From positions 35,425 through 99,424 of the IMG/VR virus record IMGVR_UViG_3300032030_000038: a DNA stretch of 64,000 bases; one strand, 5' to 3'. Positions 35,852 to 40,505 of the stretch are shown here, in pieces; position 1 is the first letter of the stretch; every line of letters starts with the position of its first letter. The stretch comes from a virus. Taxonomy: Duplodnaviria; Caudoviricetes. The translations under genes and the position numbers were made by a program. The notes under the pieces were generated by a model. That model was not told the origin of the DNA. It made no database searches and saw nothing but the letters and a program-made list of their open reading frames with translations.

Positions 35852-35855
35852 ATAA

Positions 35856-35923
35856 TGCAGTGCTTCGGACTTGAACCTGTGCCTCCAAATTATTGGCGTG
35901 CTTCCTATTACACCATCACTGCA
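35856..35923 (-). pseudogene. tRNA-like relic lacking a normal anticodon loop
   Basis: TGCAGTG/CACTGCA stem, GTGT..GCAC D arm, GGTTCAAGTCC T loop; anticodon arm only CCAA-TAAT-TTGG. Confidence 0.55.
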
Positions 35924-35927
35924 TTTG

Positions 35928-36533
35928 TGGTCCCTGAGGGACTTGAACCCCCGACCCGCTGATTCCTGCCACACTATGTTACCATAGCCAAACAATTTCA
36001 ATAATAAGTTGAATTTACTTCAAGTTTACATATACATATGTAGGCTTCCCTAGGTTGCAACAACTTAGCATTTCTTACCTTTTAATAGGTACAACCACGT
36101 CTCGCGACCTTATTATGTATAATTGTTTGTTGTGGTCTGGGCTGTCTCTTTACCATATTGAAGACATTGTTAACTATATCGCAGAACTTAGTCAGCTTTT
36201 TATTGTGGGTTCAACCACTTGACTCTTTCCACTTTCTTCAACTTAGGTATCTCCCGTTCAGTCTCTACACGATTATATACACTTTTCAAAAGTCAATATA
36301 TTTTCGCTCGGTATAGTCCTTATACATTATTGTTTAGTACTGCGAAGGCACCCATATCCTTCTATTAATGGGTTATTTACAGAAACACAAGTTACCATCA
36401 GGCCTACTTACATGTGCTCAAAGCTTGTGTTAAGGATTTTCACCGAATTTAGGAGATTCTACACAGGAATTTCTTGCCTGTGCACACAATTTTACTATGA
36501 GTCAGCCGCTCTAACCATCTGAGCTAAGGGACC
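35928..36533 (-). tRNA. tRNA-Ile2(CAT), exons 36533-36497 and 35964-35928, split by a group I intron
   Basis: Spliced: GGTCCCT TA GCTC AGATGGTTA GAGC G GCTGA CT CAT^AA TCAGC GGGTC GGGGG TTCAAGT CCCTC AGGGACC A. The GGNCCCT acceptor and A73 resemble Ile2 rather than initiator Met. Confidence 0.88.
35965..36496 (-). mobile_element. Group I intron (IC3-like), 532 nt, no internal ORF
   Basis: Exon ends in U, intron ends in G. P1 CATAG/TTGTG with U.G at the splice site; P2 GCACAGG/CCTGTGT; P3 ATCTCCT/GGGAGAT; P AAATTCGGTGAAA; Q ATACCGAGCG; R GTGTAGAGACTG; S AAGAGACAGCCC; P9.0 CCAC/GTGG. Confidence 0.9.
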
Positions 36534-36549
36534 AAAAAAAAAACACACA

Positions 36550-36663
36550 AACATTCCCAAAGTTGTACTTACAGCTCATCTACGTCTAACCGTTGATTTT
36601 GATACTATCTCAGGGTTACTGATTGTACAACACTACTACTAACCCTTTTTCGCTGGGAATGTT
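36550..36663 (-). ncRNA. Candidate structured RNA with crossed stems (pseudoknot)
   Basis: Outer AACATTCCCA/TGGGAATGTT 10 bp; interleaved AGGGTTA/TAACCCT and GTTGTAC/GTACAAC 7-bp stems. Confidence 0.45.
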
Positions 36664-36672
36664 GCTAATTTG

Positions 36673-36746
36673 TTACTCAAACAGGATTCGAACCATAGGA
36701 AATTTTAGTTAGAAATCCCCCAATTTTATACTCAAACTAATGAGAG
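36673..36746 (-). pseudogene. Degenerate tRNA-like element
   Basis: 74 nt; TA-GTTT..AAAT D arm, GGTTCGAATCC T loop, partial acceptor CTCA/TGAG, abnormal 8-bp central stem. Confidence 0.4.
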
Positions 36747-36798
36747 AGTGGGGGACGAAAAAGATGGGAGGCTGGCCTAATAAGACCAAGCCACCCAC

Positions 36799-36816
36799 AA
36801 AAAAGGGCCGAAGCCC
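36799..36816 (-). terminator. Intrinsic terminator with cUUCGg tetraloop
   Basis: GGGC-TTCG-GCCC-TTTTTT overlapping the TAG stop of the upstream gene. Confidence 0.85.
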
Positions 36817-37124
36817 TAGCAGATTTGTATCAACTCGGAGACTTCGCCCGTCTCCTCATCCACTGTCTCTTTGATAGCAAACGTGTCACCCTTATAACCA
36901 GGGTTAGCGAATGCAAATGTCACACCCTTTTCCCACTGGTCAGTTGGCTTGCCATCCGGACCCAGGACGGGCTGTTTAAATGTTAATGGCCACACGGTTA
37001 TCCCACTGGGTTTTACTCTTGCAGGAGTGGTCTTGATTGCTTTTGCAAGGTCTGGTCTTTCCGAGAGTTTTTTAGATTGAAATTCCTCGAAAACTGCATA
37101 CTTTGAATTAAATTTAACTGCCAT
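36816..37124 (-). CDS. 102-aa hypothetical protein, first gene of the leftward arm
   Basis: MAVKFNSKY...; TACTAACTTAAAA leader; own terminator; GC-richer than flanks. Confidence 0.7.
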   Translation of the reverse strand: MAVKFNSKYAVFEEFQSKKLSERPDLAKAIKTTPARVKPSGITVWPLTFKQPVLGPDGKPTDQWEKGVTFAFANPGYKGDTFAIKETVDEETGEVSELIQIC

Positions 37125-37204
37125 AGTTATTGAAGTTTTTAAGTTAGTAAATATTACGGTGGACCGAACCCAATCAGCCCGACACCCAGGGGGTGCTGGG
37201 GGAC

Positions 37205-37274
37205 TACCCACCGCCCTTTTAACTATAAAAAAAAATTTGAAAATTTTTTATCAAAATAAATACCCACCGCCCTT
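37205..37274. repeat. Direct repeat TACCCACCGCCCTT x2 followed by A/T tracts
   Basis: Identical 14-mers at 37205-37218 and 37261-37274, each followed by TATA-A(n)-TTT. Confidence 0.8.
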
Positions 37275-37432
37275 CCAAATATAAAAAAATTTATAAAATT
37301 TAAAAAAAAAAATAAAAAAAAATTATCAAAATTTCCCAAAAAGTTCCGAAATTCTCCGAAATTTTTCACCCCTCAAAATAAGGAATTTTCTTAACTACCT
37401 GAAAATCAATGAAAAAAAATTTTACTTACCCC

Positions 37433-37464
37433 CTTGACTTTTTCAAAAAAATGTTTTATATTTG
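37433..37464 (+). promoter_or_regulatory. Bacteroidota-type promoter for the rightward arm
   Basis: CTTGAC (-33 region) and TATATTTG (37457-37464, TAnnTTTG). Confidence 0.65.
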
Positions 37465-37479
37465 CACAACTTTGTTAAA

Positions 37480-37680
37480 GGGGTTCAGTCAGTTGAAAGG
37501 GTCCCCACGCCAACACGGGAAAGTAAAGGATACCGTTAGCAGGGCAGAGGTAAGTTGGGGCCAGAGATAACAAGAGTGAAAACTAATAATATATAAACGC
37601 CCCTGGATGCTGGCTGGGTTAGTGGTGAGACCCCACTACCGAGGAGCTTGAAGGATGGGAAAGCGCTCCTGAGGTCTCTT
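37480..37680 (+). ncRNA. Candidate ~200-nt multi-stem, pseudoknotted RNA
   Basis: GC-rich island right after the promoter; TTCAGTCAGT/GCTGGCTGGG (G.U-rich), GGTCCC/GGGGCC, TAGTGG/CCACTA with loop GAGACC complementary to GGTCTC, AGGAGC/GCTCCT. Confidence 0.5.
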
Positions 37681-37739
37681 TATATAAAAAACTTAAGTTA
37701 GTTTTTTTATATTGTATTACTAATATAAATGTATAATAT

Positions 37740-40505
37740 ATGGGATTGTATGAATTAAGTATGTATCCTGATGGGTATAATATATATGCTGGTGGCGGCT
37801 CTCCAGAGAATCGTGCTACTTTTGAAAAATCCTTGGATAAATTTATAGCAGCTAATCCTAAAGTGGGTGACATAGATACTAAAATATTCAGGGATTTTAT
37901 GATAGCTTTGGCAAATCACGAAAGCAGCTTCAGGTCAAAAGCGACAAATAATGTAGGCAATTACAGTGGGTATTATGGTCTTTTAAATGGTAGTAAAATG
38001 ACTGAGGAGGAGCAGCACAGGGCTGCTTATAATCATTTGAAGAAGATATTCACGGAAAATATGGTAAAAGAGGATATTGTAAAAGCCTCTGAACTGGGTA
38101 TAACCCCAGCACAGTTGTTAATAAAGTATTGGAATCAGGGAAACAGGGTTACTAATTATTTATATAATGGTAAAGACTCTACTGACGGGTTGGGTACAAA
38201 AGTCAGCGAGTACGGTAATGACATCAACCTTGATTTGGACTACTCTGCTTATCTTCCATCTGCAATTACATCTGATTTTGTAACTGTTGAGAAAGGTAAA
38301 AACTCTCTTTCAAATGCTATAAAATTAGCCAGGATACCTGGGATGGATTATTCAAACAGGGAGTCTTATATTACTAATTTGAATAAGGAGTATAACAAGG
38401 GGTTTGATTCCAGAAAATTGCAAGTTGGTGATATGATATGGTTAGTTCCTAAAAGTGATTCTGAAAAGCAAGATGCAGGTAATACCCCTACAAGAGGTAA
38501 TCAAGTGCATTTTTTGGAAGCACCTCTAGGTGAGTACCAAGTTTCACCTTATAACATGCCAGCTTTTAAAAATCCTTATATCCCAATTCAAAGTGTTGAC
38601 CTTAATACAAAAGAGGGATTCTACAATCCTATATTACAATACAGGGCAAATACAAATGCAACAGGTGGCTCTCTCACAAAGTATGATACAAAATTACCCA
38701 AGGGAAAAGAAAAAGAATATTCACAATGGGTTAAATCTCTTCCATTGAATCTTCGTGATGACCATGATTATGACCTTAGAGGTGCTTTTCTAGAGGGATT
38801 AAAGCCTGACAAGTATGGTCACATGTCCGATAAGTATAAGAAACCTTGGCATCCGACATTTAGTAACGAAAGTATTTATAGTACAAAAGATATACAAGGC
38901 GGTCATTGGGAGGGAGATGAGTTTATTCCTTCTCCATGGCAGGAAAAACGCCAACAACTTATTAATTCAATGAATCTTATGGAACCAAACACATTTTCAA
39001 ATGGTGGTGCTATCCACATAAAACCTGAAAACAAGGGTAAGTTTACAGCAGCTGCAAAACGTGCTGGCAAATCGGTTCAGGGATATGCCTCACAGATTTT
39101 GGCAAACCCCGATAATTACTCTTCCACGTTGGTAAAAAGAGCCAACTTCGCACGCAATGCAGCTAAGTGGCATGCATGTGGTGGTAAACTTTATCCCGAT
39201 GGGGGTCCGATAGATCCGCCGTGGGCTTCATTTGTTCCTTCGCAACCGAGAGAACCCCAGGTGGTAAGACCTCAGCAACAGGCCAATCCTTATTTACTTG
39301 GTCTTTCAGCTGGAATGGGTCAAAACGAAACCGCAAAATATTCTACAGCAGCTCAAACACCTGAATTTCAGCAAGGTTATTATGATGGTCAGGCTCAAGT
39401 AGCTGCTTCAGAGGCTGCTAAAGCTGGCAGAATTCCTGTTATCGAGCCTGGTATTGAAATGGTTTCCCCAGGTCTTGATTTATCTCCTGTAGGAGATGTC
39501 AGAGCTTTGGTTGATGCTGGTGAATATTACCAAGCTACAGGTGATTTGAAAACTGCTTTGGGACTTGCAGCATTGGGTGTTATTGCTGTGCCGGGGGCCG
39601 GTAAAGCTGCTGAAAGAGCTGGCAGAGAGTTTCTTGATGATGTGACATCAAAAGAAGTTCAACAGTTTGTTAAAAATAGAGAGATGTTGAGTGGAGCTCT
39701 CGAATCTATGAAAAATTATGGAAAACAAAATGTTACTAAGCCTATTGGCACTTTAAATTATAGTATACCTTCTCCAGAGCCTATGCTTAGCGAGGTTCCC
39801 TACAGACTAACAATAACTCCTCCAAAACCAAATCCAATGCGTAGCTTACCTGAGCCACGCACATTTATAAACCCAGACGGTACGGTTATAACTCCAGGAG
39901 GAGCAGTCTTTACACCAACTGTTGAAAACCCAATGAATAGACTTAGTGCAGTTGAAAAGCAAAAGCTTATAAAATCTGTTGGTGACATTGACTTCAATCC
40001 AAAAACAGAACCAAAAGTGAATCCAACTACAACCACTACATCAAGTGCCCCCAGCACAACTCAAGATATAGGTAATAGTAAAAAGGGGTTGAAAAAGGTT
40101 GGTCAGTGGATGAAAGACAATCCGTGGAAAACGAGTGCTATTTTTGCCATTCCTACATTTTTAGGAACTATGCCATTCTGGGATGATATTGGAAATAAAA
40201 TAGAATTGTCAAATCAAAGAGAGGAAAATCCTGGTATTGTTATAAACCCAGGAGATACTGTTTATCAAAATACTAATACAAACACGGCATCAGACATTGA
40301 TACCACTACAGATAAATATGCTGCTAACAGGGCTCTTGTGGAAAATATGGCTGCTCTCGATCATGACGAGATTGAGTGGGGTAGAAGACAACTTGACTCA
40401 GTATTAAATACCAAGCACTCTCCAATGGACTCACTTATATGGGAAAACTGGATTAGACAAGCTATAGAGGATAGTGCAACCAGACAAAATAACTACAGGC
40501 GTTAA
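37740..40505 (+). CDS. Multidomain virion-associated protein: lysozyme/SLT-like, LysM-like and conserved crAss modules
   Basis: ALANHESSF...YSGYYG (SLT-like Glu), LQVGD.IW (LysM-like end), DYDLRG..KKPWHPTFSNES, IHIKPENKGKFT..KRANFARNA..W, late hydrophobic segments. Confidence 0.6.
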   Translation: MGLYELSMYPDGYNIYAGGGSPENRATFEKSLDKFIAANPKVGDIDTKIFRDFMIALANHESSFRSKATNNVGNYSGYYGLLNGSKMTEEEQHRAAYNHLKKIFTENMVKEDIVKASELGITPAQLLIKYWNQGNRVTNYLYNGKDSTDGLGTKVSEYGNDINLDLDYSAYLPSAITSDFVTVEKGKNSLSNAIKLARIPGMDYSNRESYITNLNKEYNKGFDSRKLQVGDMIWLVPKSDSEKQDAGNTPTRGNQVHFLEAPLGEYQVSPYNMPAFKNPYIPIQSVDLNTKEGFYNPILQYRANTNATGGSLTKYDTKLPKGKEKEYSQWVKSLPLNLRDDHDYDLRGAFLEGLKPDKYGHMSDKYKKPWHPTFSNESIYSTKDIQGGHWEGDEFIPSPWQEKRQQLINSMNLMEPNTFSNGGAIHIKPENKGKFTAAAKRAGKSVQGYASQILANPDNYSSTLVKRANFARNAAKWHACGGKLYPDGGPIDPPWASFVPSQPREPQVVRPQQQANPYLLGLSAGMGQNETAKYSTAAQTPEFQQGYYDGQAQVAASEAAKAGRIPVIEPGIEMVSPGLDLSPVGDVRALVDAGEYYQATGDLKTALGLAALGVIAVPGAGKAAERAGREFLDDVTSKEVQQFVKNREMLSGALESMKNYGKQNVTKPIGTLNYSIPSPEPMLSEVPYRLTITPPKPNPMRSLPEPRTFINPDGTVITPGGAVFTPTVENPMNRLSAVEKQKLIKSVGDIDFNPKTEPKVNPTTTTTSSAPSTTQDIGNSKKGLKKVGQWMKDNPWKTSAIFAIPTFLGTMPFWDDIGNKIELSNQREENPGIVINPGDTVYQNTNTNTASDIDTTTDKYAANRALVENMAALDHDEIEWGRRQLDSVLNTKHSPMDSLIWENWIRQAIEDSATRQNNYRR

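Follow-up and report, generated by a model that had tools for sequence, protein, structure and literature searches.

In the window, the whole 64,000-nt stretch of phage DNA that was analysed, two gene arms diverge at a point where the cumulative GC skew turns, and at this point a stretch of about 240 nt with 45–50% G+C lies within an intergenic region of 20–30% G+C. It follows a host-type promoter that agrees with the consensus at 10 of 12 positions, with a predicted transcription start at about 37469–37475, and the interior of the transcript contains no ORF of at least 60 aa, as stated in the original prediction of a GC-rich, ORF-free island just past such a promoter. From 37740 to the end of the window all family-identified ORFs of at least 200 aa are on the plus strand, including those for terminase, portal, and major head protein, which agrees with the earlier view of the element as the first transcript of the structural arm; two unassigned minus-strand ORFs in this part overlap plus-strand ones. 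Neither of the flanking genes was matched in PHROGs or Pfam. The tRNA genes are found within a few kb of the element in the window and in nearly all homologous loci, and in relatives the element is followed by tRNA arrays and then by same-strand genes. In the homologues, the three ORFs that come first after the element belong to at least six unrelated clusters of varying order, and no single family is associated with the element. The features of the locus are collected in Table 1.

Table 1. Features of the promoter, the RNA element, and the adjoining sequence (window coordinates).
Feature	Position	Strand	Remarks
Promoter: TTGACT (37434–39), 17-nt spacer, TATATT, overlapping a Bacteroidetes −7 box TATATTTG (37457–64)	37434..37464	+	sequence match
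Entire folded RNA domain, P1 5′ strand to P1 3′ strand	37476..37682	+	about 205 nt; limits set by P1 and tail
P1, 5′ strand TAAAGGGG	37476..37483	+	pairs with TCTCTTTA at 37675–82; accessory; overlaps the pseudoknot on the tail
P2, 5′ strand TTCAGTCAG	37484..37492	+	pairs with CTGGCTGGG at 37610–18; three G.U pairs
P2′, 5′ strand AGGG	37498..37501	+	pairs with CCCT at 37601–04
P3, 5′ strand CCCCA (37503–07)	37503..37511	+	pairs with TGGGG at 37556–60; double changes in 6/6 pairs
P3b, GCC	37509–11	+	pairs with GGC at 37543–45; G-C replaced by A-U in 17 sequences
P3a, hairpin ACGG/CCGT around the conserved loop GAAAGUAAAGGAUA	37515..37536	+	family alignment
Tertiary pair, G37547 of CA(G)AGG	37547	+	lone long-range pair with C37600; crosses P3
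Junction J (CCAGAGAUAAC..AAGAG..ACUAAUAAUAUAUAAACGC)	37561..37600	+	40 nt, near-invariant columns; between P3 3′ strand and P2′ 3′ strand
Pseudoknot, 5′ strand AAGAG	37572..37576	+	pairs with CUCUU at 37676–80 in the 3′ tail
P4, hairpin TAGTGG/CCACTA, loop UGAGACC	37620..37638	+	sequence and length variable; absent in some lineages
P5, hairpin AGGAGC (37642–47)/GCTCCT (37665–70), closure CC (37639–40)/GG (37673–74)	37639..37674	+	homologue comparison
3′ tail GGUCUCUUUA	37673..37682	+	near-invariant; common to P5 closure, pseudoknot, and P1
A/U-rich hairpin AAAAACU/AGUUUUU and U run	37687..37708	+	lineage-specific, weak; one G-C pair; fails terminator scan
First operon gene, 921 aa	37740..40505	+	family unassigned

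The core covariance model of the element (R1) finds it with 135.9 bits (E = 2.5e-27), as a single copy in the window and in the whole genome alike. The fold shown by covariation consists of a long arm P2-P2′-P3, from which P3a branches as a side hairpin and within which P3b forms an internal helix, followed by the hairpins P4 and P5. The long-range stem relying on G.U pairs that had been drawn from the single sequence corresponds to P2, each of whose 8 pairs has variation on either side among the 81 aligned sequences, while in P2′ double changes are present in 5 of 5 pairs and 92–95% of the cells are paired. A helix had also been drawn at P3 as GGTCCC/GGGGCC; the helix itself stands, but its register is one off, and the family supports CCCCA/TGGGG. 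The ACGG/CCGT hairpin is supported in the family alignment as P3a, with three loop positions that co-vary A/G, and the arm is absent from the short variants L068, L094, and L104. The hairpin TAGTGG/CCACTA holds as P4 despite its variability among relatives, and AGGAGC/GCTCCT was recovered as P5, since every homologue has a hairpin in this position, with differing stem sequences and with the CC/GG closure paired in 19–26 of the 27 core sequences. The accessory helix P1 has 5–12 bp in most lineages and covaries beyond the invariant tail (ATGAAGAG/CTCTTCAT, ATAGGAG/CTCCTAT, CAAAGAG/CTCTTTG), being missing or doubtful in L008, L051, L088, L048, and L064.

The junction J is nearly invariant even in lineages whose stems have all changed. 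Its pseudoknot with the tail, 5–8 bp in length, is represented by eight compensatory classes (AAGAG/CTCTT, GAGAG/CTCTC, AAGGG/CCCTT, AAGCA/TGCTT, AGAGG/CCTCT, GGGAG/CTCCC, AGGAG/CTCCT, and AGGAA/TTCCT); the strand in J is the exact complement of its own tail in 35 of 43 sequences versus 14 of 344 comparisons across classes, and the observed value was reached by none of 5000 shuffles. The CUCUU tail is folded back on AAGAG of J, which bulges from the long arm, and this pseudoknot locks the domain. The lone pair 37547/37600 (19 G-C and 8 C-G, paired in 27/27 and also recovered by mutual information) ties the internal loop of P3 to the 3′ end of J, and in most lineages the 5′ end can pair with the same tail as P1. 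Another partner for C37600 suggested by alifold, the base after P3, was rejected, because that base pairs within P3 in 27/27 sequences while the pairing with G37547 is perfect. Multiple pseudoknots had been predicted and the RNA does hold pseudoknots, but both of those originally drawn were lost on comparison: the crossing CAGGG/CCCTG is 61.2% paired versus 60.9% in shuffles, its bases pairing instead in P3b and P2′, and the GAGACC/GGTCTC pairing of the P4 loop occurs in this window only, the P4 loops differing in every lineage.

In the core alignment of 27 sequences 92.4% of the cells are paired versus 63.4% in shuffles, double changes are present in 24 of 27 pairs, and pairing falls to 30–43% when the partners are slid; in the 81-hit alignment the corresponding values are 90.9% and 56.6%. 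The cells include 135 G.U pairs against 37 A.C cells, therefore the plus strand is the RNA strand, as had been proposed from the G.U pairs of the long-range stem. According to these alignments all five helices, the pseudoknot, and the tertiary pair covary, and judged by this comparison the fold is a real RNA structure. The folding energy of the region is no better than that of shuffles on the plus strand (MFE z-score +0.38; −1.76 on the minus strand), and it is uninformative here because J is long and unpaired and pseudoknots are present; thus the case for structure stands on comparative evidence and not on thermodynamics. A conserved ORF is absent among 70 homologues, the median length of their longest ATG-ORF being 17 aa.

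The known RNA families were searched with Rfam 15 (4227 models, including riboswitches, ribozymes, RNase P, 6S, SRP, Y RNA, pRNA, ROOL, and GOLLD), which at gathering scores gave only 2 tRNAs in the whole window and tRNAs alone in 14 homologous loci; in the region 37100–37800, scanned up to E = 10, there was no plus-strand match in 37476–37650. The element had been said to lack the tRNA-like end of a tmRNA, and ARAGORN finds no tmRNA in the window; the TAATAA in J has no upstream frame conserved among homologues, and tmRNA identity was rejected. Group I intron P/Q/R/S boxes were discarded as well, the GGGAAAG arm being dispensable (L068, L094) and no Rfam intron model matching, and so was RNase P, with its wrong helix order, no P4-type pairing, and no match. 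The HDV-like fold is a nested double pseudoknot with the helix order P1-P2-P3-P1′-P4-P2′. In the present element the 5′ strand of the pseudoknot is located in the bulge between P3 and P2′, past the P3 hairpin on its 3′ side, and with no Rfam HDV-type match an HDV-like or theta-type ribozyme was rejected. A Y RNA with a TROVE/Ro partner was rejected too, since PF05731 was found in the RNA-negative crAss001 alone and not in this genome, tikkala, or bajarodcaudo virus, all RNA-positive. A phi29-type pRNA, which has two loops of conserved intermolecular complementarity, was likewise rejected, there being no Rfam match and the sole loop complementarity, between the P4 loop and the tail, being window-specific.

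In the literature, searched as full text with incomplete coverage, no description of this RNA was found. The original observation is partly confirmed, five of its stems holding and both of its pseudoknots failing, and its core inference, an undescribed structured RNA, is supported by the Rfam result together with the covariation among homologues. The segment 37476–37682 is very probably an RNA domain in its own right, pseudoknotted and about 205 nt long, which the host RNA polymerase makes from a consensus host-type promoter. In this crAss-like phage of the ruminant gut, of Steigviridae type, it very probably forms the 5′ leader of the late operon, which holds the packaging and structural genes. 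It represents a new, previously uncatalogued RNA family that opens the packaging and structural operon in a group of crAss-like gut phages.

In the guts of humans and animals, few viruses are as abundant as the crAss-like phages. About 85 contigs of crAss-like phages carry the RNA family, with 69 distinct core sequences among them, and a TAnnTTTG box is located upstream in nearly all homologues, 113–118 nt before the ACTAATAATATATAAACG motif, or further where a lineage has a 5′ extension; such extensions add 40–120 nt 5′ of the domain in some lineages. The cultured Kehishuvirus “tikkala”, growing on Bacteroides cellulosilyticus, carries the RNA, which is therefore open to experiment. The distribution is patchy even among close relatives, DAC15 and crAss002 being without the RNA. 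In crAss001 the promoter is identical to that of tikkala up to the transcription start region and the downstream gp3 is alike; the ORF-free leader of about 330 nt between gp2 and gp3 takes the same slot and is also G+C-rich and helix-rich, but its sequence is unrelated save for a few short words, and it is matched by neither R1 nor any Rfam model. Since DAC15, crAss002, and crAss001 express their late operons without the RNA, the general plan of these phages does not depend on it. The homologous left-hand operon of crAss001 is late (30–60 min), and its transcription has been attributed to the host RNA polymerase (PMC8375218). The terminal repeats of DAC15 end beside the position of the element. 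Among cellular genomes, a pattern search covering 185,579 species genomes gave 4 true hits, all of them MAG contigs of 2–62 kb resembling mis-binned phage, and within the limits of the pattern used no isolate genome among them was matched.

Behind the element a hairpin AAAAACT/AGTTTTT with a U run had been predicted, and it does exist, but it has a single G-C pair, does not pass the terminator scan, and is found in this window only, most homologues being without an equivalent. In most homologues there is no terminator, and a coding gene begins 40–90 nt past the tail. A sheep-gut RNA-library contig of 273 nt exactly matches 37482–37754 and so joins the element with the weak hairpin and the start codon, which may be taken as the only hint toward terminator read-through. 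The RNA libraries X2 and X8 derive from the same single sample, and their contigs, which carry neither strand nor ends, cannot prove a transcript; X8 has no contig on the element, and both are without contigs over 37170–37481, a segment mostly covered by DNA runs, which says nothing on ends, level, or absence. The depths of the RNA-library contigs vary from gene to gene and are not usable as evidence of level.

Several known systems resemble the element in part. The HK022 put RNAs (putL and putR) are cis-acting processive antiterminators of a lambdoid phage, about 70 nt long with two stem-loops and no pseudoknot. The present RNA is likewise the first-transcribed phage RNA right behind a host-type promoter, ahead of a long same-strand operon and with no obvious phage protein partner; however, it is a 205-nt pseudoknotted domain of five helices that resembles the put RNAs in neither sequence nor structure, and it belongs to other hosts and promoters (Bacteroidetes). 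ROOL (RF03087) and GOLLD (RF01998) are orphan structured RNAs of phages and bacteria, 500–800 nt long, usually located beside tRNA genes and reported as multimeric cages. They share with the element the high degree of structure, the orphan status in phages (rumen and gut being among the sources), and the vicinity of tRNA genes, whereas the element has about 205 nt, is matched by neither model, and is a leader with genes directly after it. The leader position ahead of long, partly untranslated transcripts with tRNA arrays is also reminiscent of nut and rrn leader boxA, and the tail of the element in the window carries CUCUUUA, the same core as in the boxA consensus of E. coli, UGCUCUUUAACA (PMC13753749). 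However, this tail is paired in the pseudoknot and becomes CCCUU, UGCUU, CUCCC, or UUCCU elsewhere, the partner changing too; therefore it is selected for pairing and not as a NusB site, and in the lack of a single-stranded boxA consensus across members a boxA/nut element, judged by the E. coli consensus, was rejected. With pseudoknotted riboswitch aptamers (SAM-II, preQ1-II, fluoride) the element has in common the covarying helices around invariant junction nucleotides, the 3′ tail pseudoknotted into the core, and the 5′ leader position, but it is much larger, has no Rfam riboswitch match and no common downstream pathway (the 921-aa gene of the window is without a Pfam family), and possesses no clear expression platform, although P1 and the pseudoknot compete for the tail.

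Among the functions originally suggested, a leader of the late genes fits best, and we tentatively favor, at somewhat less than even confidence, a cis-acting leader that would control the elongation of host RNA polymerase into the late operon. Such a leader would act in cis on the transcribing host polymerase complex and decide or ensure read-on from the promoter into the 25–60 kb late operon, by antitermination or gating after the manner of the phage put and nut leaders, with the overlapping P1 and pseudoknot pairings as a possible on/off element; since P1 is missing in several lineages, this switch cannot be universal. Because the leader is swapped behind the promoter shared by crAss001 and tikkala, the first genes belong to at least six families, and J is invariant while the stems change, we infer that the element probably works with the host machinery and not with a co-evolving phage partner. 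Certain observations speak against elongation control: the put RNAs are short and unrelated, and ligand binding, catalysis, or an RNP would more typically go with so ornate a domain; the late operons of DAC15, crAss002, and crAss001 run without the RNA; and the hairpin with the U run is both weak and confined to this window. A riboswitch-type sensor, that is an aptamer for a metabolite, an ion, or a phage or host protein marking late-gene time, whose binding would shift the balance of P1 and pseudoknot and so open or close the operon, is rather unlikely. It would explain the classic aptamer signature of covarying stems, invariant junction nucleotides, pseudoknot, and lone tertiary pair in a 5′ leader where two overlapping pairings vie for one tail, and a consensus host promoter driving genes that are late in crAss001 (PMC8375218) invites control after initiation; but in most members no expression platform is recognizable, the terminator being absent and the tail lying 40–90 nt from the start codon, the downstream genes do not form one pathway, P1 is not found throughout, no Rfam aptamer matches, and crAss001 has an unrelated leader instead. 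Improbable to a similar degree is a stable ncRNA acting in trans after being cut from the leader, or terminated in this phage, as an assembly or packaging cofactor, as an ornate RNA of the ROOL/GOLLD kind, or as a decoy, free or in an RNP, for a host defence or RNA-binding protein. The closed domain whose 5′ and 3′ ends meet via P1 and pseudoknot, the behavior as a swappable cassette behind a constant promoter, patchy among close relatives, the tRNA genes near almost every locus as with ROOL/GOLLD, and, in this window alone, the hairpin with the U run directly behind the element are in accord with a trans-acting RNA; against it, most members have a gene directly after the element and no terminator, the RNA-library contig continues into the gene, and no co-varying partner gene is evident, TROVE/Ro being present in RNA-negative crAss001 and absent from RNA-positive genomes.

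It is still less probable that the fold is a passive leader that has no specific partner and merely keeps nucleases off the late mRNA at its 5′ end or withholds a loading site from Rho, as protection needs neither a 40-nt invariant strand nor an eight-class pseudoknot nor a conserved tertiary pair, and the 40–120 nt of extra 5′ sequence in some lineages is unfit for 5′-end protection, even though the element heads a long transcript whose first kilobases in relatives are untranslated tRNA arrays and crAss001 has another structured leader in the same slot. Gut phages carry small ribozymes beside tRNAs. The nearby tRNA arrays and the compact pseudoknotted core with many invariant unpaired nucleotides would suit a catalytic RNA, self-cleaving or otherwise, with a role in 5′-end processing of the late transcript or of the tRNA precursor; this is very unlikely, however, given that no Rfam ribozyme family is matched up to E = 10, the helix order is unlike the HDV-like double pseudoknot, and the exact RNA-library contig is unbroken across the domain and 70 nt beyond. 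The least probable, and disfavored, is a signal at the DNA level (an origin, a packaging site, or an operator cluster) or chance complementarity, to which the divergence point of the arms with its GC-skew turn, the neighboring end of the DAC15 terminal repeat, and a folding energy no better than shuffles might point, but the family admits G.U pairs and avoids the A.C mirror images of such pairs, compensatory changes affect nearly all pairs, the promoter is placed to transcribe the element, and the sequence is present in an RNA library.

A bolder version of these readings, possible but doubtful, is that the RNA is a timing device of the late operon and belongs to a new sensor or catalytic class, either a riboswitch for a signal that accumulates in the course of infection or a direct reprogrammer of Bacteroides RNA polymerase, with J as the binding or active site and with crAss lineages carrying interchangeable leader cassettes tuned to different signals. 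Apart from the choice between mechanisms, the present data add a strongly conserved pseudoknotted RNA family that stands at the very start of the late operon, and the accompanying structure model is precise enough for designing disruptive and compensatory mutants. If the favored control of elongation is true, the element would represent a new kind of regulatory device, based on RNA, in Bacteroidetes, while ligand binding or catalysis would make it a new riboswitch or ribozyme class, and even as a mere mark of the transcript it would be a useful annotation feature for crAss genomes. The two close relatives tikkala and crAss001, with the same promoter and different leaders, thus provide a natural swap experiment.

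The RNA studied here is a conserved, pseudoknotted plus-strand domain that lies directly behind a host-type promoter and heads the late operon. As the original prediction held, its island (37476-37712) is GC-rich, with a G+C content of 45–50% versus 20–30% in the surrounding divergent intergenic region, and contains no ORF of at least 60 aa; a 53-aa ORF (37409-37570) begins 5' of the promoter −7 box. From the window sequence alone the claim of a structured RNA is unproven, and it is the relatives that settle the case. The folding energy of the region gave no signal (z = +0.38, + strand), ARAGORN detected only two tRNAs in the window, both away from the RNA, and Rfam 15 returned no match on it at gathering scores or with the cutoff relaxed to E = 10, in line with the novelty originally supposed.

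By blastn against phage records a conserved core of 40–100 nt was found in the cultured Kehishuvirus 'tikkala' (grown on B. cellulosilyticus), bajarodcaudo virus 1, cr106_1, and cr85_1, each time in an unannotated gap where two gene arms diverge, and the first alignment of these homologues contained stems with both sides changing together. Two exact-pattern scans of IMG/VR provided about 75 homologous loci, mostly on contigs of 90–105 kb, and about 36 of them are less than 93% identical. In the 27-sequence core alignment 92.4% of cells were paired versus 63.4% after shuffling (0 of 500 shuffles reached the observed value), 24 of 27 pairs had changes on both sides, and sliding the partners by 1–3 columns lowered pairing to 30–43%. 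The covariance model of the core, R1, gave 81 matches (69 distinct sequences) among the loci searched; the alignment fitted to it, which is biased toward the model's own structure, showed 90.9% paired cells versus 56.6% when shuffled, and the same helices were recovered without the model by mutual information. Since G.U outnumbers A.C in helix cells (135 versus 37), it is the + strand RNA that functions, as had been argued originally from G.U pairs. There is no conserved ORF across the homologues, where the longest ATG-ORF has a median of 17 aa.

The helix coordinates were verified in the window and are collected in the table; the stem sequences of the P4 and P5 hairpins differ from lineage to lineage. 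Two tertiary contacts are supported by sequence comparison, namely, the pair G37547-C37600, paired in 27 of 27 (19 G-C and 8 C-G), and a pseudoknot of CUCUU (37676-80) in the tail, the 3' end of the RNA, with AAGAG (37572-76) of the junction strand J. The latter occurs in eight compensatory classes (AAGAG/CTCTT, GAGAG/CTCTC, AAGGG/CCCTT, AAGCA/TGCTT, AGAGG/CCTCT, GGGAG/CTCCC, AGGAG/CTCCT, and AGGAA/TTCCT), the exact complement of the own tail being present in 35 of 43 distinct J/tail combinations versus 14 of 344 across classes, and none of 5000 shuffles reached the observed complementarity. P1 overlaps the pseudoknot on the tail and is regarded as an accessory helix or an alternative pairing because it is absent from several members (L008, L051, L088, L048, and L064). 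In the P3a loop (37519-37532) three positions switch together (A/G, G/A, A/G), GAAAGUAAAGGAUA versus GAGAAUAAAGGGUA, in 43 sequences versus 14. Such covariation, which is not of the Watson-Crick type, points to a tertiary contact or to a loop with a structured motif.

Features of the RNA and its promoter in the window, and the alternative leader of crAss001
Feature	Position	Strand	Remarks
Promoter	directly 5' of island	+	TTGACT-17-TATATT, 10/12 matches
Bacteroidetes −7 box	37457-64	+	TATATTTG; overlaps promoter
P1	37476-83 / 37675-82	+	5'-3' closing helix, covarying in most lineages
P2	37484-92 / 37610-18	+	long-range stem
P2'	37498-501 / 37601-04	+	
P3	37503-07 / 37556-60	+	
P3b	37509-11 / 37543-45	+	
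P3a	37515-18 / 37533-36	+	loop GAAAGUAAAGGAUA; arm missing from short variants
J	37561-37600	+	40 nt, nearly invariant; bulge between P3 and P2' 3' strand
P4	37620-25 / 37633-38	+	variable hairpin, absent at times
P5	37642-47 / 37665-70	+	closing pairs CC 37639-40 / GG 37673-74
crAss001 leader	L107:660-1000 (MH675552)		between gp2 and gp3; ORF-free, ~330 nt

The original prediction had drawn P2, P3a, P4, and P5 correctly and had the right P3 stem in a register off by one, which makes five correct stems. Its crossing CAGGG/CCCTG helix pairs no better than shuffles, and its pseudoknot of the P4 loop with GGTCTC proved a coincidence confined to the window. The proposed AAAAACT/AGTTTTT hairpin with a U run is present, but its stem contains a single G-C pair, the terminator scan does not accept it, and most relatives have no counterpart.

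No earlier description of the RNA was found in Rfam 15 or in full-text literature searches. The tmRNA, RNase P, group I, HDV-like, pRNA, Y RNA, and ROOL/GOLLD candidates each lack one or more of the defining features tested. CUCUUUA in the tail is identical to the core of the boxA consensus of E. coli (PMC13753749); a role as a conserved protein site of the boxA type was rejected, since the tail is base-paired and covaries with its partner. In terms of function the nearest analogues are phage leaders of the put/nut type, aptamers with pseudoknots, and orphan ornate RNAs of phages. The RNA is classed as a new family within a general kind already known, that of structured phage leaders or orphan ornate RNAs.

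One copy of the RNA occurs in the 99.4-kb virus record, followed on the + strand by a 921-aa gene of unknown family (37740-40505) and the exonuclease, terminase, portal, and major head protein genes, which places it at the head of the arm for packaging and structure. The 921-aa protein resembles, in its residues 286-425, the N-termini (MW.DLSM...) of the first or second gene behind the RNA in several relatives (first ORFs of loci L085, L073, L028, and L007), as if it were a member of that family extended N-terminally by about 285 residues. In most homologues the gene start lies 40–90 nt past the tail and a terminator is absent; the genes that come first fall into at least six clusters, which are unrelated and vary in order, and tRNA arrays often come after the RNA. 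In crAss001 the left-hand operon, the counterpart of the RNA-led arm, is late (30–60 min) and probably read by the host polymerase, the early genes lying at the opposite end of the linear genome (PMC8375218). A 273-nt sheep-gut metatranscriptome contig matches 37482-37754 exactly, bridging the RNA element, hairpin, and start codon, and is compatible with a leader with read-through, although contigs show neither strand, ends, nor RNA origin.

The RNA was not found in crAss001, DAC15, or crAss002. A pattern scan of 185,579 species genomes revealed it in only four MAG contigs, none from isolates; these (L108, L114, L128, and L133; 2–62 kb), assigned to Intestinibacter, Tissierella, Cellulosilyticum, and a Bacteroidales bin from goat, are in all likelihood fragments of crAss-like phages that were binned wrongly. 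The promoter regions of crAss001 and tikkala are identical over 104 aligned bases up to GCACCA, past which crAss001 carries a different helix-rich leader (CTCCAAAG/CTTTGGAG, TCCACA/TGTGGA, CTCCC/GGGAG, for example) and then the same gp3. This leader is common to the PhiCrAssBcn isolates and cr112_1 and is matched by neither R1 nor Rfam. As the same promoter and gp3 enclose different leaders, the slot looks like an exchangeable cassette.

Tentatively, the RNA may act in cis on transcription elongation, as is suggested by its position, its lack of an own terminator, the long and partly untranslated operon behind it, a J strand that hardly varies although all the stems drift, and the clean cassette swap that leaves neighbouring genes unchanged. 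The near-invariance of J suggests a conserved (host) partner. A switch sensing a ligand or protein is unlikely, and a released trans-acting RNA, set beside a contig that runs on to the start codon, is doubtful to the same degree. That the domain is a passive leader, its J strand so nearly invariant, is improbable; a ribozyme is very improbable, and a DNA signal or chance, given the strand-specific G.U excess, hardly credible.

Several lineages (L002, L007, L013, L037, L019, and L086 among them) have an extra 40–120 nt between promoter and P1 with a common motif (T)AGCAAGTAYT 25–35 nt past the −7 box. GGACAT often stands before this motif, which is partly palindromic (CAAGTACTTG in L037), is absent from the window, and could represent an operator or an additional RNA element. 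In DAC15 (L141:1-1960, MT074136) an exact terminal repeat ends at 1842, in the divergent intergenic region shortly before the rightward operon, and many RNA-bearing IMG/VR contigs (L014, L026, L038, L040, L054, and L060 among them) start or stop 150–500 nt 5' of the RNA. The RNA slot probably lies just within the boundary of the terminal repeat, and this would account for these breaks in the assemblies. Gp96 of crAss001 (L106:35965-38289; crAss001 95964-98288) is a TROVE (Ro60-like) protein; some 900 nt before its gene are without annotation and might house a Y-RNA-like partner, and the gene is absent from the window's genome, tikkala, bajarodcaudo virus, DAC15, and crAss002.

Between the two divergent promoters of the window lies an extremely A/T-rich, homopolymer-rich tract (37220-37420, 20–28% G+C), within which 37283-37329 was skipped as a repeat in read placement and DNA contigs also break. 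About 950 nt adjoining tRNA-Leu (35852-36800) lack a sizeable ORF, and 36300-36600 has very high word depth in RNA-library contigs. A variant form with 36339-36431 replaced by 34 other letters occurs in RNA and DNA runs alike and is thus an allele rather than splicing.
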